A stretch of 64,000 nucleotides of DNA, taken from the NCBI GenBank assembly GCA_965219385.1, contig CBDCNM010000001.1, forward strand, positions 298,631 to 362,630, in the 5' to 3' direction. Source of the DNA: Candidatus Latescibacterota bacterium (GTDB taxonomy: Bacteria; Latescibacterota; UBA2968; UBA8231). The position numbers and the translations under genes were made by a program. Positions within the stretch are counted from its first letter, which is position 1. Each line of letters opens with the position of its first letter. Shown here one piece after another: positions 18,734 to 37,951 of the stretch. The notes beneath the pieces are model-generated. The model was not told where the DNA came from. It saw only the letters and a program-made list of their open reading frames with translations, and searched no databases.

Positions 18734-19954
18734 ATGATTATACGCGACCTCACGCCCAAGCTGAAGAAGGCGGCAAGGACATCGCCTTCCATCACGCTCA
18801 CCGGCCCCCGGCAAAGCGGCAAGACAACCTTAAGCCGAGCCGTGTTTCCGCAGCATCCGTACGCGACTCTCGAGGCTCCGGACGTACGCGCTTTCGCGAC
18901 GGAGGATCCCCGTGCCTTCCTGGCTCAATTTCCCGAGGGCGCCATCATTGACGAGGTGCAACGGGTGCCAGACTTGCTCTCCTATTTGCAGGGCGTCATC
19001 GACGCAGATCCAGCACCCGGGCGCTGGATCCTCACGGGCTCGCAAAACCTCTCCCTGCTCGAGTCGGTCAGCCAATCGCTGGCCGGAAGGACGGCGGTAT
19101 ACAACTTGCTGCCGCTTACCCGCGGCGAGATTGTGCGCTTCCCTCAGCATCCCAAGGGTCTCGACGAGACTCTTCTCACCGGCGCGTACCCCCGCATATT
19201 CGATCGTGCACTCGACCCGGTAGACTGGCTCCGTTCGTATGTCGCCACCTATATCGAACGCGACGTGCGGACAATCAGCAACGTGGGTGATCTCGCGACA
19301 TTCCAACGCTTCGTCGAGTTGTGTGCCGGTCGTACGGCGCAGTTGGCCAATTACTCGTCACTGGCCGGCGACTGCGGGGTATCACAGCCAAGCGCCAAAG
19401 CCTGGCTCAGCATACTTGAGACCAGCTTTCTCGCTTTCCGCCTGCCGGCATTTCACTCGAATCTGCGCAAGCGGCTCGTGAAGCTGCCGAAGCTGCACTT
19501 CTACGACACCGGTCTCGTCTGCTGGCTGCTCGGTATCCGTACGCCTGAACAGCTCCGCACCCATCCTCTTCGTGGCCCGATCTTCGAGACCTGGGTCGTC
19601 TCGGAGATCGCGAAATACCGAACCAACCGGGGTGAGACGGGTGGTCTGTCGTTTTACCGCGACCGCAACGGGGCCGAGGCCGGTCTCATCATCGAGCACC
19701 CGTCCCGCATCACGCTCGTCGAAGCCAAGTCCGCCGAGACTGCATCCTCGAGCTTGTTCGATGGTACCCGACGCGTCCGGAGACATCTCACCCAATCACC
19801 TCGTCCATGTTCCGTAGTCGTAGCCTATGGCGGCGATCAACTCCAGCACCGCGCGGCGGGGAGTCTGATACCTTGGAGCAAGCTACACGAAGCAGGTTTT
19901 TGGGAATCGGAACGCGTCGTTTCCGTCTTTGCCGCTGGTCAGCCGAATCGCTGA
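18734..19954 (+). CDS. AAA+ ATP-binding protein, AAA_14 + DUF4143 type
   Basis: GPRQSGKT Walker A, IIDEVQ Walker B, ILTGS, KLHFYDTGL, FYRDRNG-EA; the usual E-V-D nuclease-like motif reads EAG. Confidence 0.88.
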   Translation: MIIRDLTPKLKKAARTSPSITLTGPRQSGKTTLSRAVFPQHPYATLEAPDVRAFATEDPRAFLAQFPEGAIIDEVQRVPDLLSYLQGVIDADPAPGRWILTGSQNLSLLESVSQSLAGRTAVYNLLPLTRGEIVRFPQHPKGLDETLLTGAYPRIFDRALDPVDWLRSYVATYIERDVRTISNVGDLATFQRFVELCAGRTAQLANYSSLAGDCGVSQPSAKAWLSILETSFLAFRLPAFHSNLRKRLVKLPKLHFYDTGLVCWLLGIRTPEQLRTHPLRGPIFETWVVSEIAKYRTNRGETGGLSFYRDRNGAEAGLIIEHPSRITLVEAKSAETASSSLFDGTRRVRRHLTQSPRPCSVVVAYGGDQLQHRAAGSLIPWSKLHEAGFWESERVVSVFAAGQPNR

Positions 19955-19977
19955 TACCTTCACGGATAGCCTCGCCG

Positions 19978-20002
19978 GTCTCCCCTTGCTTCGGCAAGGG
20001 GA
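19978..20002 (+). CRISPR. Solitary truncated degenerate CRISPR repeat
   Basis: GTCTCCCCTTGCTTCGGCAAGGGGA versus array GTCTCCCCTCGCTTCGGTGAGGGGA; changes keep the stem paired; 3' handle absent. Confidence 0.75.
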
Positions 20003-20004
20003 AT

Positions 20005-20054
20005 AAATGTTTTATTGCCGTTGGGCGGTCAAGGAGGCTGCTCTGAAAAAAGGG
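20005..20054. repeat. 50-bp direct repeat, copy 2
   Basis: Identical to 18613-18662. Confidence 0.92.
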
Positions 20055-20081
20055 CCAAAAATTTAGATTTTTTCGACACAA

Positions 20082-20098
20082 CGGACATTCCCTGTCCG
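20082..20098. promoter_or_regulatory. Putative WYL-regulator operator
   Basis: Inverted repeat CGGACA-ttccc-TGTCCG about 40 bp upstream of the WYL start. Confidence 0.5.
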
Positions 20099-20134
20099 CT
20101 TGGAGAATATCTTTATCCCGTGGAGGATTGAGCT

Positions 20135-21112
20135 ATGCCCATAACCGATGCAATCCACAAGGCGGACCGGCTCGAAGAGATCAAAGTACTGTTCCTGCGC
20201 CGGCCCGAAGGCATGGGGACCAAGGAAATCGCAAGGCTGTTGCGCGTGAGTCAGCGGACGGCCCGGCGCTACGTGCTGGAGTTGTCGGAGAAAGGGCGGC
20301 TGCCGGTGTACCGGGAGGGCCGGGTCTGGAAGCTGGTGGAGGGCGGGCAAATCGACCTGCGTCGTATCCAGTTGAACCTAGACGAGGCCCTCGCGCTTTA
20401 TTTGGCGGCGCGGATGCTGTCGGCCTATAGCGACAAGCACAATCCGCACGTGGTCGCGTCCCTGCTCAAGCTGGCCTCGGCCTTGCCGGAGGCCATTGGG
20501 GCGCACATTGAGCGCACGGCAGAGGCGGTTTCGCAAAGGCGGCTGGCGCCGGAGTATCTGAAAGTCTTGGAAGGTCTGACCCGGGCCTGGGCCGGCCGGC
20601 GGCAGGTGCGGCTCAGCTATCGCGATCCCGTCTCCGGGGAGCGCTCGGAGCGCCGGTTCGATCCCTTTTTCATCGAGCCGTCCTTTGTGGGCTATGCCTG
20701 CTATGTGCTCGGTTTCGATCACTTTCGCTAGGCGATCCGCATCTTCAAGGTCGAGCGCTTGGAGCGGGTCGAGGTGCTGGACTCCAGCTACGAGATGCCG
20801 CCGGATTTTGACCCCTACGACTACCTGAAGTACGCCTGGGGGATCATGGGCGGCGACGAGGTGGTGGAGGTGAAATTGCGGTTTTCCGAGAAGGTGGCCT
20901 ATCGGGTGCGGGAATCGGACTGGCCGGGCGTGGTGGCCCGGGAGGAAGGCAAAGACGGGCGGTGTACGCTGACTTTTTCGGTCAACCACGTTTTGGAAAT
21001 GAAGCCCTGGATCAGAGGATGGGGGCCGGATTGCGAGGTGCTGGCCCCGGAGGGCTTGCGGGCGGAAATTGCCGCAGAGATGAAGGCGGCAGGGGCGGTG
21101 TATGAAGGATGA
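20135..21112 (+). pseudogene. HTH-WYL-WCX transcriptional regulator with one in-frame TAG at 20729-20731
   Basis: HTH (TKEIARLLRVSQRTARRY); WYL region YACYVLGFDHFR*AIRIFKVERLE continues in frame into a WCX-like region (EMKPWIRGWGPDCEVLAPEGLR). Confidence 0.85.
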
Positions 21113-21724: not shown

Positions 21725-23986
21725 ATGAACTATTACGCCCACACAGCCGAAACGGCTACTGGAGAATGCGATACGAATAAATCGCGTTGGCAATTGCTTT
21801 CCACCCACCTGTGCAATGTCGCGGAACGGGCCGAACAATTCGCTGCTCCCTGCGGGTTGGCAGATGAAGCACGCCTTGCCGGTTTACTACATGACCTCGG
21901 AAAGTACGGGAAACGCTTCCAGCAGCGCCTTGAAAATCCTTCCATCCGCGGAATTAATCATTGGGTACAGGGTGCTTACGCCGCCTTTCTAAAGAGGAAT
22001 ATTCGTTTACCGTTCGCCATTGACGGGCACCACACAGGAATGCCTGCCTTCACATGTGATGAGTTCAAGCGCTCGCTAAAAAATTCGATGAAGGATTTTC
22101 ATGTGGGTAACGGTGTCGTGTTGGAAACCGGTCATGAAGAATCGGTGAATGAGTTGCTTGTTCGCGCCAAAAACGATGCCATTTCGCTTGGCTCATTTCT
22201 AGCGACGGATGAAATGTCGTTCGCCTCCGCACTACGAACGCGCATGTTGTTCAGTTGTCTGGTGGATGCGGATTTTCTGGACACGGAAAATCACTTCGAT
22301 TCCGAACGGGCCAAATCGCGGAGTGTTCCATCGCTTTCCGAGGAAGCGGCCTTCAAAATTGTCATGAAATTTCTCCACGGCCTTTCTACAGATGGGCAAG
22401 TCAACCAAGCACGACAACAACTACTGACGGACTGTCTTGCGGCGGCGGACAAACAACCCGGACTGTTTTCCCTTACCGCGCCGACCGGTAGCGGCAAGAC
22501 GCTCGCGTCGCTGGCCTTCGCGCTGAAGCACTGTTGTCGGCATAACGCCAGTTTGCCTGCCACCTCCCATGATCGCTTTCGGCGCGTCATCGTCGTCATT
22601 CCCTTTACCAGCATTATCGAACAGACCGCCAAAGTCTTTCGCGACCTCTTCAAACCGGTCTTTGGCCCAGACTACGTGCTCGAACACCACAGCGCCGTTG
22701 CATGGGGAGAATCAGGTTCCGACCTTGGCCGGGATGCGGAAGATGCCTGGATTCGCCGGGCACGTCTGGCGGCAGAAAATTGGGCGTCTCCCCTCGTCGT
22801 CACCACTTCCGTGCAGTTCTTTGAAAGCCTCTTCGCGCACAGACCGTCCCGCTGCCGTAAGCTCCACAATATCGCCCGCTCGGTGGTCATTTTCGATGAA
22901 GTTCAGACTCTGCCGACATGTTTGGTGCCTTCCCTCCTTTCGGCGGTGAACTGCCTCACCCACGATTACGGTGTTACGGCCGTCTTCTGCACCGCCACTC
23001 AGCCTGCGTTCGGAACTGCGGCGAAGGCGATTGATGACGGCTGGCATCCTCGGGAAATTTCAAGCCGACCTGATGCAATGGCTGAAACACTCAAGCGAAC
23101 CAACATTACCATCCGTTGCGACGAGGATTCCCCGGCTGACTGGCAGGAGCTTGCCAGCGAAATCAGCCAGCACAACTGCGTCCTTTGTGTCGTCAACACA
23201 CGTGCTCAAGCTGCCGAGCTGTTCCAATTACTGCCCGAGGCGGGACGCTTCCACCTTTCAGCGGCCATGTGTGCGGCGCATCGCTCGGATAAGCTCGCGG
23301 TCATTCGCCAACGGCTTGAAGAGGACAAAACCTGCCGGCTCATCTCGACCCAACTCATTGAAGCAGGAGTGGACGTGGATTTCCCCATCGCCTATCGCGC
23401 CCGCGGCCCGTTGGACTCCATCATCCAGACCGCTGGCCGCTGCAATCGCGAAGGCCACTTGCCCGACCCCGGTCCTGTTACCGTATTCACACCGCCTTTG
23501 GGCGGCATGCCGCGTGGTGCTTACAAAACCGCTACCCAGGAAACCGAATCGTTCCTCGCCGAATTCCCGGATGTGCCTCTGCACCAGCCGGAAACCTATC
23601 GCAGCTATTTCGCGCGACTTTACGCAACGCTCGGCCCCGATTCGGCAAATGATGATCCTGCCTACTCCGCCAGCAAGAATTTCGATTTTCCCGCTGCCGC
23701 CAAAGCCTGCCAACTGATCGGCGATGAGACGCGATCCGTCCTCGTACCATACGGCCATAGCAGAGAACTCATCGAAACCATCCGTCATCAACAGCATCTT
23801 ACCGCTGACCTTGCCCGCCGGTGCCAGCGTTTCACAATCAATCTTTACGAGTCGGAATTTCAGAAGTCCCGTAGCACTGGTGTCATAACTCCGCTGCTCA
23901 AGGACGAATCCATGTTTTTCTGGAGTTCCGGCTATGACGACCAACTTGGCATCTGCAATTACGAAGCTGAACATTTCGTTCTCTGA
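21725..23986 (+). CDS. cas3: CRISPR-associated HD nuclease/helicase Cas3
   Basis: YYAHT, LLHDLGK, SCLVDADFLDT; APTGSGKT, FDEVQ, TATQ, STQLIEAGVDVDF, QTAGRCNR. Confidence 0.96.
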   Translation: MNYYAHTAETATGECDTNKSRWQLLSTHLCNVAERAEQFAAPCGLADEARLAGLLHDLGKYGKRFQQRLENPSIRGINHWVQGAYAAFLKRNIRLPFAIDGHHTGMPAFTCDEFKRSLKNSMKDFHVGNGVVLETGHEESVNELLVRAKNDAISLGSFLATDEMSFASALRTRMLFSCLVDADFLDTENHFDSERAKSRSVPSLSEEAAFKIVMKFLHGLSTDGQVNQARQQLLTDCLAAADKQPGLFSLTAPTGSGKTLASLAFALKHCCRHNASLPATSHDRFRRVIVVIPFTSIIEQTAKVFRDLFKPVFGPDYVLEHHSAVAWGESGSDLGRDAEDAWIRRARLAAENWASPLVVTTSVQFFESLFAHRPSRCRKLHNIARSVVIFDEVQTLPTCLVPSLLSAVNCLTHDYGVTAVFCTATQPAFGTAAKAIDDGWHPREISSRPDAMAETLKRTNITIRCDEDSPADWQELASEISQHNCVLCVVNTRAQAAELFQLLPEAGRFHLSAAMCAAHRSDKLAVIRQRLEEDKTCRLISTQLIEAGVDVDFPIAYRARGPLDSIIQTAGRCNREGHLPDPGPVTVFTPPLGGMPRGAYKTATQETESFLAEFPDVPLHQPETYRSYFARLYATLGPDSANDDPAYSASKNFDFPAAAKACQLIGDETRSVLVPYGHSRELIETIRHQQHLTADLARRCQRFTINLYESEFQKSRSTGVITPLLKDESMFFWSSGYDDQLGICNYEAEHFVL

Positions 23987-23992
23987 CCATCT

Positions 23993-24031
23993 AAAAAAAT
24001 AGAAGCCAAACGACGTAAGTCATTTGGCTTC
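23993..24031 (-). terminator. Intrinsic terminator closing the antisense crRNA-like transcript
   Basis: Stem 24002-24010/24023-24031 (extended by gac/gtc) followed on the minus strand by TATTTTTTT. Confidence 0.7.
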
Positions 24032-24088
24032 AAATAGATACGAAACAATCAATGTTTCAATCCGCACCCAGACAGGTGATTTCGAGAC
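23993..24088 (-). ncRNA. Putative crRNA-like regulatory RNA: degenerate repeat + 22-nt guide + terminator
   Basis: Minus strand GTCTCGAAATCACCTGTCTGGGTGCGGATTGAAAC (24088-24054), guide ATTGATTGTTTCGTATCTATTT (24053-24032), then GAAGCCAAA/TTTGGCTTC hairpin and T-run; guide matches 24152-24170. Confidence 0.75.
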
Positions 24089-24118
24089 CTCAGAATAAGA
24101 AACTCTTACAGAGGGTCC

Positions 24119-24147
24119 TTGACAAGCGTTGTGGAAGCATTTATATT
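24119..24147 (+). promoter_or_regulatory. Near-consensus sigma70 promoter for the orphan ORF and cas5-cas8-cas7
   Basis: TTGACA (24119-24124)-N17-TATATT (24142-24147). Confidence 0.8.
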
Positions 24148-24195
24148 TGCTATTGAATGTTTTGTATCTAATAACCATTTCTAATATAGGATTGA

Positions 24196-24483
24196 ATGAC
24201 CATGAAAGCAACAAAAATACTCGATAGCATTCGGTACCATGTCTTTCCGCCTTTGGAACACTGGCGGGTAATAAAACGGCGTCCTAGAGTGCATCCCTAC
24301 GATGATATGCCACTATCAATTCCATCATTAGTATGGTTGCACCTCCTCGCGGACTCGCCGGAAGAAGCTGACAAAGCTGTTGCAATGGTCGTAGCATACG
24401 GAATAGCTGAATTCCAAAACCCGAATAGGGTGAACTCACAGCATGTCGCTGTCTTTAAAACCTTGCCCTTTTCCCTAAACTGA
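24196..24483 (+). CDS. Small orphan protein (93-95 aa) immediately upstream of cas5c
   Basis: Follows the promoter and an AGGA RBS; stop is 2 nt before the cas5 ATG; lower GC than the cas genes; no recognised motif. Confidence 0.5.
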   Translation: MTMKATKILDSIRYHVFPPLEHWRVIKRRPRVHPYDDMPLSIPSLVWLHLLADSPEEADKAVAMVVAYGIAEFQNPNRVNSQHVAVFKTLPFSLN

Positions 24484-24485
24484 TT

Positions 24486-25208
24486 ATGCACACTGAACGA
24501 ATCCATCTCCGTGTCTGGGGCGATCTGGCCTGTTTCACACGCCCGGAAATGAAAGTCGAACGGATGAGCTATCCCGTACCCACGCCCTCGGCTGCCCGGG
24601 GCATCCTCGAAGCGATTCTCTACAAGCCGCAATTCCGTTGGCACATCCACCGCATCGCCGTTCGCCTCCCCATCAAGTTCCTCAGTTTCCGCCGCAATGA
24701 AGTAAAATCCGTCGCCAACTCCCGCAAGCCCGAACCCATCTTGGCCGAGGATGATCGCACGCAACGCAACACGCTTGCCCTCCGCGACGTGGATTACGTC
24801 ATCGAAGCCAGCCTGGAACTCAACCGCTTGGCCAATCAGCCCCGTCAAAAGCCACTCGCTCCCGATGAACCCCAAGGCGACGATAATCTTAGTAAATACT
24901 ATGGGATGTTCCGACGCCGGGTCGAGAAGGGCCAATGCTTCACCCAGCCTTGTTTTGGTTGCCGTGAATTCCCCGCCAACTTCGAGTTGGCTCGGCCGAG
25001 CGACATGGCCGCGCCGCCCGACGCCAATGTGGACACAGATTTGGGACATATCCTCTACGATGTGTTCGATCTCGACATCCCGGCGGACTGGCAGCCCGGC
25101 AAGGTCGAAAAGCCGGAACCTGTCAGTAACTTTTTCCAAGCCCGTCTCGAAAACGGCATCGTCAATGTGCCCGACTGGCGTGACATTAAGGCCAGCCTTG
25201 AAGCCTGA
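24486..25208 (+). CDS. cas5c: Type I-C Cas5c (Cas5d)
   Basis: WGDLACFTRPEMKVERMSYPVPTPSAARGILEAI, RRNEV, GQCFTQPCFGCREF. Confidence 0.96.
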   Translation: MHTERIHLRVWGDLACFTRPEMKVERMSYPVPTPSAARGILEAILYKPQFRWHIHRIAVRLPIKFLSFRRNEVKSVANSRKPEPILAEDDRTQRNTLALRDVDYVIEASLELNRLANQPRQKPLAPDEPQGDDNLSKYYGMFRRRVEKGQCFTQPCFGCREFPANFELARPSDMAAPPDANVDTDLGHILYDVFDLDIPADWQPGKVEKPEPVSNFFQARLENGIVNVPDWRDIKASLEA

Positions 25209-25226
25209 ATCAACTGGGAAGAAACC

Positions 25227-26966
25227 ATGATGCTGCAAGCCCTCATCGAATACGCCGAACGCGAGGGGCTCGGCGATGCCGACTTTCACGAAGCGTCTGT
25301 CCGCTGGCTGGTCCCTTTGGACGCCGCCGGCAATCTCGCAGGCGGCCCCATCGAACTGCTGGACAAGCCTGATGCGAAAAAGCCCAAACCGCAAACGCTC
25401 ACCCGTCCGTTCATTGAACAAAAGGAACTCACAGTTGCTTCGCGCCCGCGTGCCTTCTTCCTTTGCGACACGCTGGAGCGTGCGGTCAACTATCCCGACC
25501 CCAAAAAGCCCGAACGAGCCGAACGGCGCGAAGGTTCCCACGCCTATTTCAAGCAATTGCTTGAGGCGGCCGTGGGGGAATGCCCCAACGACGGTCCAAT
25601 GGCCCAGGCGACTCTGGCCTTTCTGAACCAGCCGGACATGCTCGAAAAACTTCACGCATCACTGACGGAACAAAAAGCGAAGCCGAACGACAACATCACT
25701 TTCCGGATCTCCGGCCATAGGCTGCTTCAAGCGGAGGAACTCAAACAATTCTGGCGCAGACGCCGCGCCGCAGATCGGCCACAAGCTGCGGGCAGGAAAC
25801 GCCTCTGTCTGGCGACTGGCGAATTGACGGAGCCGGTTTTAACCACGGAGAAAATCAAGGGTGTACCCGGCGGCCTTGCCGTGGGAACCAACCTGATTTC
25901 GTTCGACAAGGCTTCGTTCACTTCTTTTGGTCTTCAGCAGGGTGAAAACGCCTCCATCTCCGCTGCCGCTGAGTTGAAAATTCGCAGCGCGTTGAACGAT
26001 CTCATCCAGCACGGCCTTTGGCAGAACGGAATCGTTCACCTTCACTGGACCCGCGAGAAGGATGACCCCGACCCGTTTGGCCTAGTTGAGACTGCCGACG
26101 AACAGGGTGTTCGCAACCTGCTTGAGGCACCACGCACCGGACAATCCCAACATGTGGACGCCCGGAAGTATTACGCCATGAGTCTCTCGGGCAACGGTGG
26201 TCGCATCATCGTCCGCGACTGGCTCGAATCCACTGTTCCCGAAGTTGAGCAGAACGTGCGGCAATGGTTTGAAGACCTCGCCATCGTTCGCCCGGAAGGC
26301 GATTTCGTCTCCACTGATTTCAAGCTCGGCTATCTCTTGCACGGTCTCGTTCGCGACAAACTCGACGAGTTGGCTCCACAGATTCCCACGCAGTTTTTGT
26401 ATGCCGCACTGCGCGACGCGCCCTTGCCTTTGCCGGCTTTGACCGCGGCGCTGCGGCGGCAGCAAATCGAAACCGACAACAAAACCAACCCGGCGCGCTT
26501 GGCCCTTATCAAGGCTTGCCTCCTGCGTCAGGATCGTTTCAATCAACCAAAGGGAAGGAACAACATGACCGAATCGTTAAATACTGAATCCACAGACCCC
26601 GCCTATCTCTGCGGGAGACTGTTCTCGGTCTTTGACCGTCTCCAATACCTCGCCCTCAGCGGTGTCAACGCCGGGGTTGTCGAGCGTTTCTATGCCAGTG
26701 CTAGCACCACGCCTGCCCTGGTGATGGGGCGACTCTTTCGCAACGCGCAATTCCACTTGGCCAAAGTCAGCGGTGGTGCGGCGGAAAACGTGCGCAAGGA
26801 CTTCGAAGTCATCAGCATCCAACTGGGCGACCATTTCCCGCCCAGCCTCGACCTCGAAGGGCAGGGCCGCTTCGCCCTCGGCTATTACCACCAAAAAGCC
26901 GAATACCGACGACTCGCCGCCGAGCGCAAGGAACAAGCCACCAACGCTGAACCCGCTACGGCATAA
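25227..26966 (+). CDS. cas8c: Type I-C Cas8c (Csd1)
   Basis: MMLQALIEYA start, LISFDKASFTSFG, LSGNGGRI, AYLCGRLF, QGRFALGYYHQK. Confidence 0.94.
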   Translation: MMLQALIEYAEREGLGDADFHEASVRWLVPLDAAGNLAGGPIELLDKPDAKKPKPQTLTRPFIEQKELTVASRPRAFFLCDTLERAVNYPDPKKPERAERREGSHAYFKQLLEAAVGECPNDGPMAQATLAFLNQPDMLEKLHASLTEQKAKPNDNITFRISGHRLLQAEELKQFWRRRRAADRPQAAGRKRLCLATGELTEPVLTTEKIKGVPGGLAVGTNLISFDKASFTSFGLQQGENASISAAAELKIRSALNDLIQHGLWQNGIVHLHWTREKDDPDPFGLVETADEQGVRNLLEAPRTGQSQHVDARKYYAMSLSGNGGRIIVRDWLESTVPEVEQNVRQWFEDLAIVRPEGDFVSTDFKLGYLLHGLVRDKLDELAPQIPTQFLYAALRDAPLPLPALTAALRRQQIETDNKTNPARLALIKACLLRQDRFNQPKGRNNMTESLNTESTDPAYLCGRLFSVFDRLQYLALSGVNAGVVERFYASASTTPALVMGRLFRNAQFHLAKVSGGAAENVRKDFEVISIQLGDHFPPSLDLEGQGRFALGYYHQKAEYRRLAAERKEQATNAEPATA

Positions 26967-27035
26967 CCATCAACCCAGTCTCAAATTGCGTCTCCTCTTC
27001 TTCAGTAAGAGGGACAAAAAGAAAGTGAAAGCACT

Positions 27036-27902
27036 ATGAATTCGATCCAAAGCCGATACGATTTCGTCTATCTCTTCGACTGCAAAGACGGCAACCCGAA
27101 CGGCGATCCCGATGCCGCCAACGCTCCACGTGTGGACCCGCAAGACATGCACGGTCTCGTGTCTGACGTGTGCCTGAAACGCAAAATCCGCAACTACGTT
27201 CTGGAAGCCAGCGGTGGCGCGGAACCGTTCGATATCTTCGTCCGCCAGGGCGCGATTCTGAATGAGTCCATCGCCCAAGCCCACAAAGATCTCGGCCACG
27301 AGATGGACGGCAAAGCCAAGAAGGCCACCCGCGACCAAGTCAAAGATGCCCGTGCCAAAATGTGCCATCGCTACTACGATGTAAGGACGTTCGGCGCGGT
27401 GATGTCCACCGGGACCAACGCCGGACAAGTGCGCGGCCCTGTGCAACTGAGCTTCAGCCGCAGCCTTGATCCCATCCTGCCAATGGACATTTCCATTACC
27501 CGCATGGCCGTCACCGAGGCTAAGGAACTCGACGCCCCGAACCAGACGATGGGCCGTAAAAACCTCATTCCCTACGGCCTGTACCGCTGCCACGGCTTCA
27601 TTTCCGCCAACCTCGCACACGACACTGGATTCAGCGACGACGACCTCAACCTTTTTTGGCAGGCGTTGCAGAATATGTTTGACCTTGACCGTTCCGCCTC
27701 GCGTGGTACCATGGCTCCGCAAAAGCTCATCGTTTTCAAACATCAATCCGCCCTCGGCAATGCGCCCGCACACAAGTTGTTCGAACGCATAACGGTTACC
27801 CGAAAGGAGTCCGTCCAGGCAGCCCGCCAATTCTCCGACTACGAAATTTCCACCAACTGGAATGATCTGCCCGAAAATGTGGAACTGGTCGAGATGCTGT
27901 GA
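27036..27902 (+). CDS. cas7c: Type I-C Cas7c (Csd2)
   Basis: GNPNGDPDAANAPR, SDVCLKRKIRNYV, DVRTFGAVM, VRGPVQ, TMGRK. Confidence 0.96.
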   Translation: MNSIQSRYDFVYLFDCKDGNPNGDPDAANAPRVDPQDMHGLVSDVCLKRKIRNYVLEASGGAEPFDIFVRQGAILNESIAQAHKDLGHEMDGKAKKATRDQVKDARAKMCHRYYDVRTFGAVMSTGTNAGQVRGPVQLSFSRSLDPILPMDISITRMAVTEAKELDAPNQTMGRKNLIPYGLYRCHGFISANLAHDTGFSDDDLNLFWQALQNMFDLDRSASRGTMAPQKLIVFKHQSALGNAPAHKLFERITVTRKESVQAARQFSDYEISTNWNDLPENVELVEML

Positions 27903-28540
27903 CTAACGCCGCTCCATTTCCCAATCTGCCCGATCCCATCCCCCTCTCGCTCCTCAACGACTACCTCTATTGCCAACGCCGGGCGGCATTGAAGGCGATT
28001 GAAGGGTGGCGCGGGACCAACGAGCACACCGTGGTCGGCGATGGTGTCCACGAGCAGGCCGACGTCTCCGGCTACGAAACCGTCAGGGGCGTGACTCTGT
28101 TGCGCGCCCTGCCCGTCTGGTCGGACCGGCTCGGGCTCAACGGCAAGTGCGACATCGTCGAGCGTCATCCCGACGGCTCGTTGATCCCGGTCGAGTTCAA
28201 AAAGGGCAAACGTCGCAAGTTCGACAACGACGACGCTCAGCTTTGCGCCCAAGCGTTGTGCCTCGAAGAGATGTTCGGGCGGGACATTCCCAAGGGGGCC
28301 ATCTTCCACGCTAAGAGTAAGCGCCGCCGAGAGGTGGAATTTACCGAAGATTTGCGCCGCCTCACCGAACAGGCCATCGAAGCCATGCACCGGCTGATCG
28401 AAGAGGAAGCGGTCCCCCAAGCCGTCCATAAGCCCCAATGTTCCGAGTGCTCGCTTTTTGACCATTGCCTTCCCGAAATCACCAGCGTTCCGCCTATGCT
28501 GGCGCGGGCCTATCGGGAAGTGTTCGATACCACCGCCTAG
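27899..28540 (+). CDS. cas4: Cas4 exonuclease
   Basis: YLYCQRR, GKCDIVE, PVEFKKG, QLCAQALCLEEM, CSECSLFDHC Fe-S cysteines. Confidence 0.95.
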   Translation: MTNAAPFPNLPDPIPLSLLNDYLYCQRRAALKAIEGWRGTNEHTVVGDGVHEQADVSGYETVRGVTLLRALPVWSDRLGLNGKCDIVERHPDGSLIPVEFKKGKRRKFDNDDAQLCAQALCLEEMFGRDIPKGAIFHAKSKRRREVEFTEDLRRLTEQAIEAMHRLIEEEAVPQAVHKPQCSECSLFDHCLPEITSVPPMLARAYREVFDTTA

Positions 28541-28568
28541 AGTCACCTAGCTCTCCGTGCCGAGCGAA

Positions 28569-28606
28569 GTCTCGCCTTGCTTCGGTAAGGGGGAACGGAT
28601 TGAAAC
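28569..28606 (+). CRISPR. Solitary degenerate CRISPR repeat abutting the cas1 start codon
   Basis: GTCTCGCCTTGCTTCGGTAAGGGGGAACGGATTGAAAC immediately followed by the cas1 ATG. Confidence 0.85.
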
Positions 28607-29668
28607 ATGGCCATTGTCCAAAACACTCTTTATCTGACGACGCCGAAAACCGTAGTGCTCAGGGATCACTTGACGCTCCGGGTCGAGATCGAAAAGCAAA
28701 CCCGCCTGACCGTGCCCATTCACCATTTGGAAAGCATCTGCGCCTTTGGGCAGGTCGTGGTTACGCCGCCGGCCATGGCCTTGTGCTGGGATCATCAGGT
28801 GGCGGTGCATTACCACACCGAGAACGGCTATTTGCTGGCGCAGGTCTTGGGAAGCGGAGATACCCGCTACTTGCTGCGCCGGGCTCAGTACGCGGCGGCG
28901 GACAGCCCACAGGATGCGGCTTGCATTGCCCGGCAATTCGTCGCTGGAAAGCTGCAAAATGCACGATCCAATCTCTTGCGGTCCAGGCGGGAAGTCGATG
29001 GCGATTCGGATCGGGGGAAGCTGGCGGATGCGGCTGATGAACTGGCCCGGCTGATCCGCCAACTCGGCGATGCCCCGCCCGTTGCCCCGGGTTGCGGGCT
29101 TCGGGAGGCGCTCGACCCGATCAGGGGCTTGGAAGGTCTGGGTGCCAAGGTGTATTTCTCGGTGTTCCAGTACATGCTCAAACAACAGCGAGAAGATTTC
29201 AGGTTTGTAACCCGCACGCGACGTCCGCCCCGGGATCGGATAAACTGCCTGCTTTCCTTTATATATGCCTTGGTCCGCCACGATTGTTTGGCCGCGTTGA
29301 CGACCGCCGGGCTGGACCCTTATGTCGGCTGGCTTCATGCGACGCGCGCCGGGAGGCCGGCTTGCGCTCTGGACCTGATGGAAGAGTTCCGGCCCTGTCT
29401 GGCGGAACGGCTGGCGTTGACCCTCGTCAATCGCCGCCAGATCGAATCCAAGCACTTTCGCGAACGAGAGGGCGGCGCCGTAGAATTCACCGACCAGGGC
29501 AGGAAAGAGGTCATCCAGGCTTGGCAACAGCGCAAGCAAACAGAAGTAAAACACGCCCTGTTTGAGCAAAATATCCATTTGGGACAAGTGTTCAGCATTC
29601 AAGCCAAGTTATTGGCCCGCAAGCTCCGCGGCGATGTCCCTGACTATATTCCCTTCATTCCGAAATAA
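28607..29668 (+). CDS. cas1: Type I-C Cas1
   Basis: NTLYLTT, RGLEGLGAKVYF, RRPPRDRINCLLSFIY, GLDPYVGWLH, ALDLMEEFRP. Confidence 0.96.
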   Translation: MAIVQNTLYLTTPKTVVLRDHLTLRVEIEKQTRLTVPIHHLESICAFGQVVVTPPAMALCWDHQVAVHYHTENGYLLAQVLGSGDTRYLLRRAQYAAADSPQDAACIARQFVAGKLQNARSNLLRSRREVDGDSDRGKLADAADELARLIRQLGDAPPVAPGCGLREALDPIRGLEGLGAKVYFSVFQYMLKQQREDFRFVTRTRRPPRDRINCLLSFIYALVRHDCLAALTTAGLDPYVGWLHATRAGRPACALDLMEEFRPCLAERLALTLVNRRQIESKHFREREGGAVEFTDQGRKEVIQAWQQRKQTEVKHALFEQNIHLGQVFSIQAKLLARKLRGDVPDYIPFIPK

Positions 29669-29958
29669 TGTTTATCCTGATCGCGTACGACGTTTCGACT
29701 GCGGACAAATCTGGGCAAAAACGACTGCGCCGAGTGGCAAGAGCCTGTGAGGATTACGGCGTCCGGGTGCAAAAATCGCTTTTTGAGTGTCAGGTGGGAA
29801 AAACCGAATGGGCGGCACTCAGAAATCGTCTGCTGAAGGAAATCGATTCCAAGCAGGATTCTCTCAGGGTCTATCATTTGGGCGAAGACACTAGAGACAA
29901 GACGGAGCATCACGGGTTCAACGAGCCCGTGGACTTGAATGCACCACTGATCTTATAG
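29668..29958 (+). CDS. cas2: Cas2
   Basis: ILIAYDV, RLRRVARACEDYGVRVQKSLFEC, DSLRVY. Confidence 0.96.
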   Translation: MFILIAYDVSTADKSGQKRLRRVARACEDYGVRVQKSLFECQVGKTEWAALRNRLLKEIDSKQDSLRVYHLGEDTRDKTEHHGFNEPVDLNAPLIL

Positions 29959-30138
29959 TATGCGCGAAGGTAGAGTAATGGAGTTTCGCCCCTGGTTTCG
30001 CGCAATGCGAAAACGTATGTATAACAACAGGTTAGCGCGTTCATCGATACTTGAGTCAGGAATTCTCGTCATCCATTCGATAGAATCGCGCATCCATCTG
30101 TGTAACCCTTTAGTATTCCGCTGGTTACAGCAACCAGC
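29959..30138 (+). promoter_or_regulatory. CRISPR leader
   Basis: 180-bp lower-GC non-coding stretch between cas2 and the first repeat. Confidence 0.75.
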
Positions 30139-33100
30139 GTCTCCCCTCGCTTCGGTGAGGGGAGCGGATTGAAACAGGTTGGCAGCTTCGGACATTTTGG
30201 CAGCGGACAAGTCTCCCCTCGCTTCGGTGAGGGGAGCGGATTGAAACCTATCCCGCATTTTTCGATCAACCCCAGCGATGAAAGTCTCCCCTCGCTTCGG
30301 TGAGGGGAGCGGATTGAAACGGATCACTCCGGTGGACTGGATTGGTGATGTCGTCGGTCTCCCCTCGCTTCGGTGAGGGGAGCGGATTGAAACATCCTCT
30401 TCATCCTCATCCCGTTGCTCATCCCGGTCTCCCCTCGCTTCGGTGAGGGGAGCGGATTGAAACTTGGCGGGTTGCGTCTTTTTCGCCGCCCGCGACTGTC
30501 TCCCCTCGCTTCGGTGAGGGGAGCGGATTGAAACCTCACGGTCCCGGGTACGGCAATTCCGCCGATACAGTCTCCCCTCGCTTCGGTGAGGGGAGCGGAT
30601 TGAAACACTGGTGCTATGGTAGCTGGTACCGGGGCTCAGGTGGTCTCCCCTCGCTTCGGTGAGGGGAGCGGATTGAAACGGTATATTATCCCAGACAGGC
30701 ACAAAGGAGGCCGTCTCCCCTCGCTTCGGTGAGGGGAGCGGATTGAAACGTGGTTGGGCGCGCCGGATTATGGAGCAGTATCGGGTCTCCCCTCGCTTCG
30801 GTGAGGGGAGCGGATTGAAACACCAACGCCACCAACGATAAAAGCGGACGGCCATCGTCTCCCCTCGCTTCGGTGAGGGGAGCGGATTGAAACCTGGTGC
30901 ACCAGGCATTTAACATCCAACGAGGAGTGTCTCCCCTCGCTTCGGTGAGGGGAGCGGATTGAAACATGAGACCTGTTGGCTCTGGCCCTCGGATTGCTTA
31001 GTCTCCCCTCGCTTCGGTGAGGGGAGCGGATTGAAACATCCGTATGTTAGTAATCAGAAATTGAAATTGAAGGTCTCCCCTCGCTTCGGTGAGGGGAGCG
31101 GATTGAAACGTGGTTGGGCGCGCCGGATTATGGAGCAGTATCGGGTCTCCCCTCGCTTCGGTGAGGGGAGCGGATTGAAACCAACACCGGCGTCTGGAAA
31201 AAGACCTGCGGACTGGGTCTCCCCTCGCTTCGGTGAGGGGAGCGGATTGAAACGCTGCTGAGTATTTCAGGTACCCGATCCTCCTCCTGTCTCCCCTCGC
31301 TTCGGTGAGGGGAGCGGATTGAAACTCCTGCCGTGCGCACATCAATTCACTAGCCCACTTGTCTCCCCTCGCTTCGGTGAGGGGAGCGGATTGAAACCCT
31401 TTCCGGCCTATCCCCTTAGAATGTGCCGCTTGTGTCTCCCCTCGCTTCGGTGAGGGGAGCGGATTGAAACCTCACCCTAACCGGAGGAACCGAATGACCG
31501 CACCAGTCTCCCCTCGCTTCGGTGAGGGGAGCGGATTGAAACCTCTACCTCTTCTGGGCGATCTTCACCGGCCTAGTGGTCTCCCCTCGCTTCGGTGAGG
31601 GGAGCGGATTGAAACGCAGTATTCGCACATCCAGGGATCGGGTGCCTCCGTCTCCCCTCGCTTCGGTGAGGGGAGCGGATTGAAACGAAATGGGGCATCC
31701 GCAAGGCCCGTGGGCAAAAAAGTCTCCCCTCGCTTCGGTGAGGGGAGCGGATTGAAACAAGCTTTCTAAAGCCCCAAGGCATCCCCCGCTACGTCTCCCC
31801 TCGCTTCGGTGAGGGGAGCGGATTGAAACACTGCCGGTACTGCGGCGCTCGCCTCAGCACCCCGGTCTCCCCTCGCTTCGGTGAGGGGAGCGGATTGAAA
31901 CCCGTCTGCGAAGACGAACCATGAAATTTAACCCACGTCTCCCCTCGCTTCGGTGAGGGGAGCGGATTGAAACGCTGGCGAGGGGCAAAATCGAGCGTCC
32001 GCGCAGGAGGTCTCCCCTCGCTTCGGTGAGGGGAGCGGATTGAAACATAGCTGGCCGTCCAGGTGCCGGCGGCGGAAAAGTGTCTCCCCTCGCTTCGGTG
32101 AGGGGAGCGGATTGAAACCCAACCCTCGGCCAAGCTGAGGATCCGGTCGCTGTGTCTCCCCTCGCTTCGGTGAGGGGAGCGGATTGAAACTGCTTGACCA
32201 CCCCGAACCTGTACTGCGTCCACTGGGTCTCCCCTCGCTTCGGTGAGGGGAGCGGATTGAAACAACTGTGCGATGCCGGTGGTAGCCGTGACGGCCAGGT
32301 CTCCCCTCGCTTCGGTGAGGGGAGCGGATTGAAACAGCAGCGGGAAGGGCCTCTAAAGAGGAATACAAAAGTCTCCCCTCGCTTCGGTGAGGGGAGCGGA
32401 TTGAAACCCGGCCGTCCCTCTGCTTTTAGGTGCTGTTGAGGCGTCTCCCCTCGCTTCGGTGAGGGGAGCGGATTGAAACGGGATGGATAGCACACCCTGG
32501 CATACTCAGCATGAGTCTCCCCTCGCTTCGGTGAGGGGAGCGGATTGAAACCCGAAATTGAGAAGCGCGCGAGAATAACGCAGGTTGTCTCCCCTCGCTT
32601 CGGTGAGGGGAGCGGATTGAAACAACCCATGGCAGTTACCATAGACAGCATCCCTGTAGTCTCCCCTCGCTTCGGTGAGGGGAGCGGATTGAAACTTATC
32701 CCAGGGCGATTAATCCTCTATGGGTCGAGGTCTCCCCTCGCTTCGGTGAGGGGAGCGGATTGAAACCATCCTTGTGTGCTCGGAAACCTGATACGCCTTT
32801 CAGGTCTCCCCTCGCTTCGGTGAGGGGAGCGGATTGAAACACAGATACCGGGTATTTTTCCTTCTCCTCCGCCATGGTCTCCCCTCGCTTCGGTGAGGGG
32901 AGCGGATTGAAACAGGTTGGCAGGTAGCGGACATTTTGGCAGCAAGACGTCTCCCCTCGCTTCGGTGAGGGGAGCGGATTGAAACCCAACCCTCGGCCAA
33001 GCTGAGGATCCGGTCGCTGTGTCTCCCCTCGCTTCGGTGAGGGGAGCGGATTGAAACTTTTTACATGTGGTGCACAGTCCCGGCTTGTACTTGTCTCCCC

Positions 33101-36100
33101 TCGCTTCGGTGAGGGGAGCGGATTGAAACACCCGATAGCTGTCGAGGGCTGAAGCCCTCCTGATGAGGTCTCCCCTCGCTTCGGTGAGGGGAGCGGATTG
33201 AAACGCTGCTGAGTATTTCAGGTACCCGCCTCCTCCTGGGTCTCCCCTCGCTTCGGTGAGGGGAGCGGATTGAAACCAAGCCCGCTCAATCACGTACACT
33301 CAGGCATGGGCGTCTCCCCTCGCTTCGGTGAGGGGAGCGGATTGAAACCAGTGCTCTCGGATTTCCCCCGATGACATCACTTGTCTCCCCTCGCTTCGGT
33401 GAGGGGAGCGGATTGAAACTGATATTGCCAATAATGTCTCCCTCGTACCGGCAAGTCTCCCCTCGCTTCGGTGAGGGGAGCGGATTGAAACAAGACGTCG
33501 GCGTCGGCCCCTTGCCCATCGGAACAGTCTCCCCTCGCTTCGGTGAGGGGAGCGGATTGAAACCGATGTTGCGGAAGGGGAAAACCTCGACGAGATTAGT
33601 CTCCCCTCGCTTCGGTGAGGGGAGCGGATTGAAACCGATGTTGCGGAAGGGGAAAACCTCGACGAGATTAGTCTCCCCTCGCTTCGGTGAGGGGAGCGGA
33701 TTGAAACGACTACACTGATGAGGAGCTGATCGAGCTCATCGTCTCCCCTCGCTTCGGTGAGGGGAGCGGATTGAAACATTTTACGGCCGGACCAAACCTG
33801 AGCGCCACTTCGTCTCCCCTCGCTTCGGTGAGGGGAGCGGATTGAAACCAGAGGGTGATGATCCTGGTTCATACCAACTCCTACGTCTCCCCTCGCTTCG
33901 GTGAGGGGAGCGGATTGAAACCTGTGGTGGCATGGCACGGACTGGACGACATCTATGTCTCCCCTCGCTTCGGTGAGGGGAGCGGATTGAAACGTGATGT
34001 CGTCTACGGGGCACGACAGGGAACTGTGTCTCCCCTCGCTTCGGTGAGGGGAGCGGATTGAAACGTAAAAGCTTCGCCAATTCGTGACGAGCTTGGCGAG
34101 TCTCCCCTCGCTTCGGTGAGGGGAGCGGATTGAAACGACTACACTGATGAGGAGCTGATCGAGCTCATCGTCTCCCCTCGCTTCGGTGAGGGGAGCGGAT
34201 TGAAACATTTTACGGCCGGACCAAACCTGAGCGCCACTTCGTCTCCCCTCGCTTCGGTGAGGGGAGCGGATTGAAACCAGAGGGTGATGATCCTGGTTCA
34301 TACCAACTCCTACGTCTCCCCTCGCTTCGGTGAGGGGAGCGGATTGAAACCTGTGGTGGCATGGCACGGACTGGACGACATCTATGTCTCCCCTCGCTTC
34401 GGTGAGGGGAGCGGATTGAAACGTGATGTCGTCTACGGGGCACGACAGGGAACTGTGTCTCCCCTCGCTTCGGTGAGGGGAGCGGATTGAAACGTAAAAG
34501 CTTCGCCAATTCGTGACGAGCTTGGCGAGTCTCCCCTCGCTTCGGTGAGGGGAGCGGATTGAAACGACTACACTGATGAGGAGCTGATCGAGCTCATCGT
34601 CTCCCCTCGCTTCGGTGAGGGGAGCGGATTGAAACATTTTACGGCCGGACCAAACCTGAGCGCCACTTCGTCTCCCCTCGCTTCGGTGAGGGGAGCGGAT
34701 TGAAACCAGAGGGTGATGATCCTGGTTCATACCAACTCCTACGTCTCCCCTCGCTTCGGTGAGGGGAGCGGATTGAAACCTGTGGTGGCATGGCACGGAC
34801 TGGACGACATCTATGTCTCCCCTCGCTTCGGTGAGGGGAGCGGATTGAAACGTGATGTCGTCTACGGGGCACGACAGGGAACTGTGTCTCCCCTCGCTTC
34901 GGTGAGGGGAGCGGATTGAAACGTAAAAGCTTCGCCAATTCGTGACGAGCTTGGCGAGTCTCCCCTCGCTTCGGTGAGGGGAGCGGATTGAAACAAAGCT
35001 ACTGAGCTTGATATACTGATTGAGAAAAGTCTCCCCTCGCTTCGGTGAGGGGAGCGGATTGAAACCTCAACGACGCGGTTGGCTTTGCCCTCGTCCTCGA
35101 TGAAGGAGTCTCCCCTCGCTTCGGTGAGGGGAGCGGATTGAAACTTGCTACTTCTGATTGTTGCTGACATTGCTACATGTCTCCCCTCGCTTCGGTGAGG
35201 GGAGCGGATTGAAACTACCTACTGCCGATGCCCATGCGTGTATGCCTATCCGGTCTCCCCTCGCTTCGGTGAGGGGAGCGGATTGAAACGGGTTCAACTC
35301 GACCACCTGGCCCGGGGGCAGGGACGTCTCCCCTCGCTTCGGTGAGGGGAGCGGATTGAAACGGAGACGACGGGGACGATGGAGAGGACGGGCAGGATGT
35401 CTCCCCTCGCTTCGGTGAGGGGAGCGGATTGAAACAGCACCAAGTGTCCTCAACGAAAGATACACTCGAAGTCTCCCCTCGCTTCGGTGAGGGGAGCGGA
35501 TTGAAACAACGCAGCAGGACACGTAGTGCACTCTCCTTGCTGGTCTCCCCTCGCTTCGGTGAGGGGAGCGGATTGAAACACCGTCGTCCCGGACATAGAG
35601 TCGCTGATTGGTCTGTCTCCCCTCGCTTCGGTGAGGGGAGCGGATTGAAACCCGATAGTGAGAAGCGCGCGAGAATAACGCGAAGTGTCTCCCCTCGCTT
35701 CGGTGAGGGGAGCGGATTGAAACGGCTACCATACCGACGCTCGACAGCTTTTATGCCGGTCTCCCCTCGCTTCGGTGAGGGGAGCGGATTGAAACACTGA
35801 TGAGTCCTGGTAGTGGCCAGGTCGAAACCGTCTCCCCTCGCTTCGGTGAGGGGAGCGGATTGAAACAGAAAAAAAAGAAGGACCACCCCCCCACAAGATT
35901 GGTCTCCCCTCGCTTCGGTGAGGGGAGCGGATTGAAACGACTTGCTGTGGCCGACAGAGGAAGGGCCCTCCTGTCTCCCCTCGCTTCGGTGAGGGGAGCG
36001 GATTGAAACAAGGCATCCAGTAGCGTAACGATCTGGGCTGCGGGTCTCCCCTCGCTTCGGTGAGGGGAGCGGATTGAAACAAATACTTCCCGAGGGTGCA

Positions 36101-37951
36101 CGATGCAAGCCGATGTCTCCCCTCGCTTCGGTGAGGGGAGCGGATTGAAACGGCAACCGGCGCTTAGAGGCGCTCGACGCGCTGGGTCTCCCCTCGCTTC
36201 GGTGAGGGGAGCGGATTGAAACGAGAATGCGCGGTTACTTGAGGAGCTCGCGCGCGGGTCTCCCCTCGCTTCGGTGAGGGGAGCGGATTGAAACTCGAAT
36301 TTCGGGCCGGCCGACGCGGGCTGCCGTTCGGTCTCCCCTCGCTTCGGTGAGGGGAGCGGATTGAAACAGTTATGGGCTTCTGGGCAGCCGGCCTGATTTC
36401 CGGGTCTCCCCTCGCTTCGGTGAGGGGAGCGGATTGAAACGTCGTCGAGCCGTCCGTTGTTCGGTGTTGCGGTAAGTCTCCCCTCGCTTCGGTGAGGGGA
36501 GCGGATTGAAACCAGCAGCGCCGTCCGTTCGCCCTCTACCGTGGTAAGTCTCCCCTCGCTTCGGTGAGGGGAGCGGATTGAAACCACCACAACAACGGCC
36601 AGCCCGAAACGCAGTGCTGAGTCTCCCCTCGCTTCGGTGAGGGGAGCGGATTGAAACTTGCGCTCCCCGGGTACGGCAATTCCGCCTATACCAGTCTCCC
36701 CTCGCTTCGGTGAGGGGAGCGGATTGAAACGATTACGGGCATCCGCAAGGCCCATGGGCAGAAAGTCTCCCCTCGCTTCGGTGAGGGGAGCGGATTGAAA
36801 CAAGGCATCCAGTAGCGTAACGATCTGGGCTGCGGGTCTCCCCTCGCTTCGGTGAGGGGAGCGGATTGAAACGGCAACCGGCGCTTAGAGGCGCTCGACG
36901 CGCTGGGTCTCCCCTCGCTTCGGTGAGGGGAGCGGATTGAAACGAGAATGCGCGGTTACTTGAGGAGCTCGCGCGCGGGTCTCCCCTCGCTTCGGTGAGG
37001 GGAGCGGATTGAAACACCACGCGCTCGGAGACCTCCACTTCTTTTCTGGCCGTCTCCCCTCGCTTCGGTGAGGGGAGCGGATTGAAACACCACGCGCTCG
37101 GAGACCTCCACTTCTTTTCTGGCCGTCTCCCCTCGCTTCGGTGAGGGGAGCGGATTGAAACATATTTCAATCCCTGGCAACTTCAGCTTTACCACCGTCT
37201 CCCCTCGCTTCGGTGAGGGGAGCGGATTGAAACCCGAATCAGTGGGCGGTAGAGGTCACGCTACCGCGTCTCCCCTCGCTTCGGTGAGGGGAGCGGATTG
37301 AAACATTGAAAATTGAAGCTCGTCACCCGCTGGCCGCCGGTCTCCCCTCGCTTCGGTGAGGGGAGCGGATTGAAACGAGTGAGCGGGGTAATGCGCGCGC
37401 GTTGCTCGTCGGTCTCCCCTCGCTTCGGTGAGGGGAGCGGATTGAAACATTGAAAATTGAAGCTCGTCACCCGCTGGCCGCCGGTCTCCCCTCGCTTCGG
37501 TGAGGGGAGCGGATTGAAACGAGTGAGCGGGGTAATGCGCGCGCGTTGCTCGTCGGTCTCCCCTCGCTTCGGTGAGGGGAGCGGATTGAAACGACCAGAT
37601 TACCGATAGCAAGGTGGTCGCTATCCACGTCTCCCCTCGCTTCGGTGAGGGGAGCGGATTGAAACCGGATTCGGGCCCGCTTCTCGGTCGGGATGTGGAG
37701 GTCTCCCCTCGCTTCGGTGAGGGGAGCGGATTGAAACTTGGAAATTGAAGCTCGTCACCCGCTGGCCGCCGGTCTCCCCTCGCTTCGGTGAGGGGAGCGG
37801 ATTGAAACGTCGAAGCCGGATCGATCAACCAGTGACGGCAGGGTCTCCCCTCGCTTCGGTGAGGGGAGCGGATTGAAACCGGTACCGCGAGCTGGTGTTC
37901 CAGCACCATCCCGAGTCTCCCCTCGCTTCGGTGAGGGGAGCGGATTGAAAC
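30139..37951 (+). CRISPR. Type I-C CRISPR array: 109 copies of 37-nt GTCTCCCCTCGCTTCGGTGAGGGGAGCGGATTGAAAC, 108 spacers (mostly 33-38 nt, one 42 nt)
   Basis: Manual count; hairpin CTCCCCTCGC-TTCG-GTGAGGGGAG and ATTGAAAC end; degenerate remnant tgctttggtgaggggaatgg right after the last repeat. Confidence 0.98.

Follow-up and report, generated by a model that had tools for sequence, protein, structure and literature searches.

Hammerhead-like spacers in a type I-C CRISPR array of a Latescibacterota bacterium suggest that the targeted DNA elements may carry hammerhead ribozymes

Why would a spacer in a DNA-targeting CRISPR array resemble one half of a self-cleaving ribozyme? The question is raised by a 64,000-nucleotide stretch of the genome of a Candidatus Latescibacterota bacterium (assembly GCA_965219385.1, contig CBDCNM010000001.1, positions 298,631 to 362,630 of the forward strand; hereafter the window), in which a type I-C array carries a spacer, number 42, laid out as the 5' half of a type III-style hammerhead. 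It is narrowly probable, in our judgement, that the DNA elements targeted by this array carry hammerhead ribozymes, an assessment that rests mainly on a further spacer of the array, spacer 79, and on a model derived from phage hammerheads. The parts of spacer 42 are as follows.

33130..33167, forward strand: spacer 42, 38 nt, the 5' half of a type III-style hammerhead
33141-33143: cleavage triplet GTC (GUC in RNA)
33144-33149 with 33154-33159: stem I, a perfect 6-bp helix, with its UGAA loop at 33150-33153
33160-33166: core CTGATGA

The spacer reads ACCCGATAGCT-GTC-GAGGGC-TGAA-GCCCTC-CTGATGA-G, the first part being 11 nt long. As in a type III hammerhead, a NUH triplet (GUC) stands directly 5' of stem I, and the closed stem I leads directly into the core C3-A9 (CUGANGA). 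An earlier, preliminary description of this DNA had reported the GUC, the perfect 6-bp hairpin and the CUGAUGA, and both layout and coordinates were reproduced. To express the arrangement as a searchable motif, H1 was defined as U, a non-G base, a hairpin of 6 bp or more that abuts directly on it, and CTGATGA. The host genome (G000; 5.81 Mb in two contigs, C1 and C2, with four CRISPR arrays) holds 692 CTGATGA sites on both strands together (11.6 Mb), and H1 occurs at eight sites in these strands, spacer 42 being one of them. When the 196 unique spacers of the four arrays (6,812 nt) were shuffled, H1 appeared in 5 of 20,000 shuffles, and the four CTGATGA sites observed in spacers compare with 0.44 expected per shuffle. 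On these counts, it is unlikely that the motif of spacer 42 arose by chance. The Rfam model Hammerhead_3, applied to spacer 42 alone in truncated mode, matched it at 20.4 bits (E=0.007 for the 38-nt search), over model positions 1-29 of 54.

Spacer 79 of the same array shows a different portion of the hammerhead plan.

35796-35829, forward strand: spacer 79, 34 nt, reading A-CUGAUGA-GUCCUGGUAGUGGCCAGGUC-GAAAC-C
35797-35803: CUGAUGA of spacer 79
35804-35823: stem II hairpin of spacer 79, 20 nt, with a G-C pair, a U.U mismatch, 6 pairs and an AGUG loop
35824-35828: GAAAC of spacer 79, followed by C

It contains CUGANGA, a stem II closed by G10.1-C11.1 and a GAAA box in register. The corresponding motif, H2 (CTGATGA, a hairpin of at least 6 pairs with one mismatch allowed, and GAAA), occurs at two sites in the 11.6 Mb of genome strands, spacer 79 being one, and in none of the 20,000 spacer shuffles. 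The spacer stands one base away from an abundant viral stem II class, with GGUC for GGAC. A further candidate was set aside:

33708..33740, forward strand: spacer 50 (the same as spacers 56 and 62), which contains CTGATGAG

Here CTGATGAG is not followed by GAAA, and the spacer has an open frame (translation by eye). A separate observation concerns a genome of the same class (G053), where a spacer in a related array of 195 repeats (L017:13567-13601) reads CUGAUGA-GGCC-AGAGAG-GGCC-GA on the reverse strand and ends there; it may be another captured hammerhead core.

How do the two spacers compare with hammerheads found in viral DNA? The textbook base of hammerhead stem II has the form CTGATGAGTCC-N4-20-GGACGAAAC, and as a positive control IMG/VR was scanned for this pattern. 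The stem II base CUGAUGAGUCC...GGACGAAAC was found at no fewer than 126 loci in IMG/VR DNA viral contigs, several contigs holding multiple copies. Among the 83 matches listed (80 loci), a script put 65 in a type I-like class and 26 in a type III-like class, ten of them in both, and 2 in neither. Twenty of these 83 listed matches are clean type III hammerheads and share the layout of spacer 42 through CUGAUGAG: they have GU+H, then a stem I (5-8 bp) whose loop has 3-7 nt, and CUGAUGAG; on the 3' side come stem II, which is short, GAAAC and 3-7 bp of stem III. An alignment of the twenty was built into a model, R1. Its members had been chosen by core and stem II base alone, not by stem I or cleavage site, and therefore their 5' halves are independent of spacer 42. 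Run on the window with filters off, R1 gave the two highest of 23 listed scores to spacer 42 together with its repeat (17.8 bits, E=0.0032) and, next, to spacer 79 (13.3 bits, E=0.1); as a calibration, a complete type III hammerhead in a genome of the same family reaches 19.6 bits. The notable point is that both of the best R1 matches in the window are spacers.

The motifs and their rarity are observed, as are the type I-C and type I-E systems, the overlap at a protospacer adjacent motif (PAM) and the absence of a neighbouring reverse transcriptase (RT) described below; that the motifs belong to real ribozymes is what we infer. Spacer 42 would then be an ordinary type I-C spacer, its DNA captured from a phage or plasmid family that the cell meets recurrently, and the same site would have been captured separately by the type I-E system. 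Like many DNA phages, the element family would most likely encode hammerhead ribozymes; one hammerhead copy would have contributed its cleavage triplet, stem I and CUGAUGA to spacer 42, and a different copy its CUGAUGA, stem II and GAAAC to spacer 79. In the cell, the spacers would guide Cascade and Cas3 to the invader DNA, and their likeness to ribozymes would have no role in immunity.

Overlapping spacers of two CRISPR systems in one genome can lengthen a protospacer and allow a structural prediction to be tested without the target in hand. When the 224 spacers in the four arrays were each compared with all the others, such an overlap was found for spacer 42. Read on the array transcription strand, spacer 51 of the type I-E array (G000:C1:136699-136731) comprises a repeat- or PAM-derived G, CCCTCCTGATGAG and then TTCCCCTTCTGGCAATCGG. 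The segment CCCTCCTGATGAG is the last 13 nt of spacer 42, matched by the reverse strand of I-E spacer 51, and TTCCCCTTCTGGCAATCGG represents the 19 nt past spacer 42, so that the protospacer grows from 38 to 57 nt on the assumption that both spacers come from one locus. The type I-E PAM is AAG, and AAG stands directly before CCCTCC inside spacer 42, at the I-E PAM position; AAG and GAG also precede I-E protospacers within I-C spacers 77 and 88 (by eye). Judged from these sequences, the I-C and I-E systems appear to have sampled the same DNA site separately.

Further overlaps between the two arrays add to 42/IE51: they are 77/IE21, 88/IE30, 19/IE29-30 and 18/IE40. Many spacers are also diverged variants of each other; examples are 16/43, 22/92, 34/77, 6/91 and 1/39, which are alike at 26-29 of about 35 positions. 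The two systems thus seem to keep re-sampling variants of the same elements. The PAM of type I-C systems is TTC; for I-C spacers 18 and 19, overlapping variants point to 5' flanks of GCC and CCA, not TTC.

Several results weigh against elements that carry ribozymes, beginning with the lengthened protospacer itself. Past spacer 42, a compact type III hammerhead would be expected to show CUGAUGAG, a hairpin, GAAAC and AGCUAUCGGGU, and the preliminary description had predicted that the protospacer would run on with stem II and GAAAC and with a strand pairing to GATAGCT. In the 19-nt extension TTCCCCTTCTGGCAATCGG there is neither a stem II hairpin nor a GAAA, and therefore the spacer 42 copy is not a compact type III hammerhead; this part of the prediction failed. 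The pairing strand is present in part: GCAATCGG in the extension pairs with CCGATAGC in spacer 42 at 7 of 8 positions, as 1.9% of shuffled or real 19-mers do. This helix sits at the place expected for stem III, but with the GAAA box the A15.1 position is absent too. In addition, the 57-nt stretch is open in each of its three reverse frames and closed in each of its three forward ones, so that the opposite strand could be coding, and the fold of the stretch is no more stable than those of its shuffles (z = -1.0). If the spacer 42 copy is a real ribozyme, it must be of type II, have a stem II lengthened by a long insertion, or be a relic. Under the type II option, stem II would be open and the GAAA and the stem III hairpin would lie upstream of spacer 42. 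A type II hammerhead would account for the joint layout of spacer 42 and I-E spacer 51, and so, equally well, would a relic or a chance site.

To these points the model scores and database searches add their own. The 20.4 bits of spacer 42 lie far under the RF00008 gathering score of 48.5, because half a motif must score low. Spacer 79 alone matched no Rfam hammerhead family at E<=10 in truncated mode, and its stem II variant (GGTC) has no exact counterpart in IMG/VR viral contigs. An R1 match of 18.3 bits, with CUGAUGA and GAAAG, lies within an open reading frame (ORF) of 446 aa in the host genome (G000:C2:527148-527201, reverse strand); that site is probably due to chance, and about 18 bits is therefore the noise level of R1 for a 5.8 Mb genome. 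The host genome itself gave no RF02276 or RF00008 match at E<=1, the Rfam type III model matched in none of 132 genomes of the class, and a true protospacer was found in none of the collections searched. The reading in the preliminary description is supported in part: spacer 79 and the two leading R1 matches speak for hammerheads in the targeted elements, and the predicted continuation into stem II and GAAAC did not appear.

The search for a protospacer covered viral, plasmid, genomic and metagenomic sequences. Spacers 42 and 79, and each of the I-C and I-E arrays in full, were compared by blastn with 50,697 phage records and 72,556 plasmid records, and only chance words or other arrays were returned. 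No match came from exact and gapped scans of IMG/VR with pieces of spacers 42 and 79 and the cores of four other spacer families, and a scan of genome contigs with a 30-mer of spacer 79 gave 0 matches. In their own genome, spacers 42 and 79 match nothing except themselves; among 132 genomes of the class, spacer 42 was found with up to 3 mismatches only in its own. BLAST of the arrays against 61 relatives and 168 genomes of the phylum returned related arrays and solo repeats only, and the 569 spacers of related arrays (nine loci of relatives) showed no overlap with spacers 42 and 79 and none shared with the genome. From three sequencing runs of one study, compared with positions 33112-33185, only a 37-nt repeat contig was returned.

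Two short identities were rejected as protospacers. One is a metagenome match (L015) to a 20-mer of spacer 42, which proved to be a locally repeated hairpin with differing flanks and a G at the cleavage position. The other is a 21-mer match of I-E spacer 51 among genome contigs, which lies within a 615-aa Wzy_C/TPR ORF and is ascribed to chance. The L015 region (L015:170-720, Ga0326732_1000506) has features of its own: it is intergenic and packed with hairpins sharing a CUGAAG loop (GGGGGCUGAAGCCCCC, CCGGACUGAAGUCCGG, GGAGGGCUGAAGCCCUCC) in units of about 75-145 nt, and it lies in a chromosomal contig, upstream of a gene for an S1/P1-like nuclease. One of these hairpins is identical to spacer 42 over 24 nt and has no GAAA.

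Are hammerheads present in the lineage at all? Among the 132 genomes of the class, the Rfam type II model matched in two, both under the gathering score. One of them, G111, belongs to the same family as the host, and at L031:10539-10781 it shows type II and type III-like hammerheads 175 nt apart on one strand. The upstream copy is the type II one (G111:C1:4052718-4052780), at 36.9 bits against a gathering score of 37. The copy with the type III consensus reaches 24.6 bits with Rfam and, as the calibration above, 19.6 bits with R1; by eye it satisfies the whole consensus, with UUA followed by C, CUGAAGA, a stem II of 5 bp, GAA and a stem III of 6 bp. Both copies are intergenic, on either side of a 22-codon ORF, and upstream of a gene of the DUF5615/PIN-like kind. 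In this family, therefore, type II and type III copies occur side by side.

What kind of system acquired the spacers? The locus in the window is laid out as follows.

21725..29958, forward strand: type I-C cas operon, by Pfam matches, adjoining a hairpin repeat that ends in ATTGAAAC
21725-23986, forward strand: cas3 (Pfam Cas3-like_C_2/DEAD/HD)
24486-25208, forward strand: cas5d (Pfam Cas_Cas5d, 1.3e-32)
25227-26966, forward strand: cas8c/csd1 (Pfam Cas_Csd1, 1.9e-110)
27036-27902, forward strand: cas7 (Pfam Cas_Cas7, 9e-104)
27899-28540, forward strand: cas4 (Pfam Cas_Cas4, 7e-24)
28607-29668, forward strand: cas1, 353 aa (Pfam Cas_Cas1, 8.8e-91)
29668-29958, forward strand: cas2 (Pfam CRISPR_Cas2, 7.6e-24)
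29959-30138: leader, 180 nt, between cas2 and the I-C array
30139..37951, forward strand: I-C CRISPR array, 109 identical 37-nt repeats (GTCTCCCCTCGCTTCGGTGAGGGGAGCGGATTGAAAC) and 108 spacers, 87 of them unique

Over the host genome as a whole, the following were located.

C1:133624-138162: type I-E array, 75 repeats, adjoined by Cse1
C2: two further arrays, of 25 and 19 repeats
C1:138757, C1:327258, C2:1539769 and C2:2614012: cas1 genes
C1:868347, C2:3321911 and C2:3658480: RVT_1 matches

Both the gene content and the adjoining hairpin repeat identify the operon in the window as type I-C. The Rfam repeat family nearest to the I-C repeat is CRISPR-DR9, at 19.6-23.3 bits, where a gathering score of 45 applies; a full-text search of the literature gave no occurrence of the 19-mer at the 3' end of the repeat. 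Within the array, a block of six spacers is present in triplicate at 33564-35065 (spacers 50-55, 56-61 and 62-67), and nine more spacers are duplicated (9=14, 28=40, 48=49, 82=93, 84=94, 85=95, 96=97, 100=102 and 101=103). These duplicates are products of duplication inside the array, not of fresh acquisition. A lone degenerate copy of the repeat (GTCTCGCCTTGCTTCGGTAAGGGGGAACGGATTGAAAC) was observed at 28569-28606, between cas4 and cas1; it matches the array at 88% by BLAST, stops exactly at the cas1 ATG (28607), and might serve in the cas mRNA as a regulatory repeat or as a site of processing by Cas5d. Upstream of cas3 there are genes for a DUF4143 AAA ATPase and an HTH-WYL regulator (window 18734-20731), and at the start of the window (813-1807) a tandem repeat with a 66-nt period resembles a leucine-rich-repeat gene.

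The most serious rival to ribozyme-bearing DNA elements is a chance look-alike, in which a 6-bp palindrome happens to lie beside CTGATGAG in mobile-element DNA, probably in a gene on the opposite strand, with no ribozyme at the site regardless of the nature of spacer 79. We rate this as unlikely, though by no means negligible. The extension through I-E spacer 51 without stem II and GAAA, the open reverse frames and the 18.3-bit R1 match within an ORF would all be in keeping with it, as would seven comparable H1 motifs elsewhere in the genome, and the 24-nt metagenome and 21-nt Wzy_C/TPR identities show that such words recur by chance. It is opposed by the scarcity of the motif in the spacer shuffles, by the presence of a second, independent hammerhead-like spacer in the same array, by the 7/8 pairing of the flanks (1.9% by chance), and by the fact that spacers 42 and 79 are the top two R1 matches of the window. 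Another possibility concerns the RNA of the array itself. The preliminary description had speculated that the repeat following spacer 42 supplies a hairpin and GAAAC, so that the precursor CRISPR RNA (pre-crRNA) could fold into a hammerhead-like core. The segment in question is:

33168..33208, forward strand: repeat 43 and the first 4 nt of spacer 43, drawable as stem II, GAAAC and a stem III strand

In this version, spacer 42, repeat 43 and the GCUG of spacer 43 would fold as a working hammerhead that cuts after C33143, which we consider very improbable. The core can indeed be drawn with every core base: with Infernal, 33136-33208 aligns to the full Hammerhead_3 model (positions 1-54), where C17, CUGAUGA, GAA and the A15.1-U16.1 pair each take their proper position. 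Stem II closes around the repeat hairpin with G.U, G.U, U-A and C-G, the end of the repeat provides GAAAC, and stem III, which has 6 pairs and one bulged U, involves the GCUG of spacer 43. Against this, the full-length match scores 19.9 bits versus 20.4 for the spacer alone, short of the RF00008 gathering score, and therefore the repeat adds nothing. The required fold, at -29.0 kcal/mol, lies 4.6 above the minimum free energy of -33.6, and its share is estimated at 4e-5; at 10.1-11.1 a wobble stands in place of the usual G-C. All repeats end in GAAAC, so the repeat half is common to 108 spacers and is not specific to spacer 42, and a benefit to the cell is not evident. In type I-C systems, moreover, Cas5d binds and cuts the repeat hairpin. 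By these computed folds and scores, activity of the composite pre-crRNA is unlikely and function very unlikely. There is likewise only a slim chance that, when spacer 42 was captured, a foreign hammerhead's 5' half was joined to the repeat hairpin and the terminal GAUUGAAAC, which would replace stem II and GAAA, and that the pre-crRNA thereby gained by accident an active hammerhead cutting its own guide after C33143. If that were true, any array with repeats ending in AUUGAAAC could complete captured ribozyme halves.

It could also be asked whether the spacers derive from RNA, that is, from a viroid-like circular RNA replicon with hammerheads. This is exceedingly improbable. Its precedent lies in Roseiflexus type III arrays, and in Lee et al. 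2022 (10.1101/2022.07.19.500677) spacers are described that match the hammerhead cores of viroid-like covalently closed circular RNAs; those arrays are of type III and bear an RT, whereas the arrays here are of types I-C and I-E. No RT was found beside any of the four cas1 genes of the host genome, as RT-assisted acquisition would call for, and in the 353-aa Cas1 of the window only Cas_Cas1 was matched by Pfam, which bears out the earlier remark that this Cas1 lacks an RT domain. A further set of overlapping spacers from these arrays can be assembled, by eye, into a gene start with a Shine-Dalgarno sequence and an ATG. The source of the spacers is thus a DNA element, because the PAM of the I-E protospacer is correct (AAG), no RT lies near any cas1 and the spacers build a gene start. 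The preliminary description had likewise held a DNA phage or plasmid to be the likelier source, and the AAG PAM at the same-site I-E spacer and the lack of an RT near cas1 agree with it.

If DNA elements with hammerhead ribozymes are indeed the source, the spacers record such elements attacking a poorly studied lineage; for this host lineage, the collections searched (phage, plasmid, IMG/VR and genome) contained none. Phage DNA with hammerheads and spacers matching hammerhead cores have both been published already, and the general picture is unchanged. In Perreault et al. 2011 (PMC3088659), hundreds of bacterial hammerheads are reported, many of them near prophage integrases and often several per prophage; type II is described there as being as frequent in bacteria as types I and III, and most of its copies are reported to have pseudoknots of 4 bp or more.

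Set beside phage type III hammerheads (RF00008; PMC3088659; IMG/VR loci L045, L066, L073 and others), spacer 42 is alike in its GUC, its abutting 6-bp stem I, its short loop and its CUGAUGAG. It differs in what follows: all 20 viral examples have a short stem II and GAAAC after CUGAUGAG, whereas the spacer 42 protospacer has neither within 19 nt. With type II hammerheads (RF02276, for example in G111), spacer 42 and I-E spacer 51 share a closed stem I, CUGAUGA, a 3' tail that looks unpaired and the lack of a stem II hairpin. In contrast to that type, loop I of spacer 42 has just 4 nt and can form a pseudoknot of at most 3 bp with the tail (by eye), and the GAAA and stem III hairpin that define the type would fall outside spacer 42, past its 5' end. 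Finally, the spacers of Lee et al. 2022 come from RT-associated type III arrays and concern RNA replicons, whereas the systems described here are DNA-targeting types I-C and I-E with no RT and with a DNA PAM. What the two cases have in common is a spacer with a hammerhead core, which can link a ribozyme-bearing element to its prokaryotic host.

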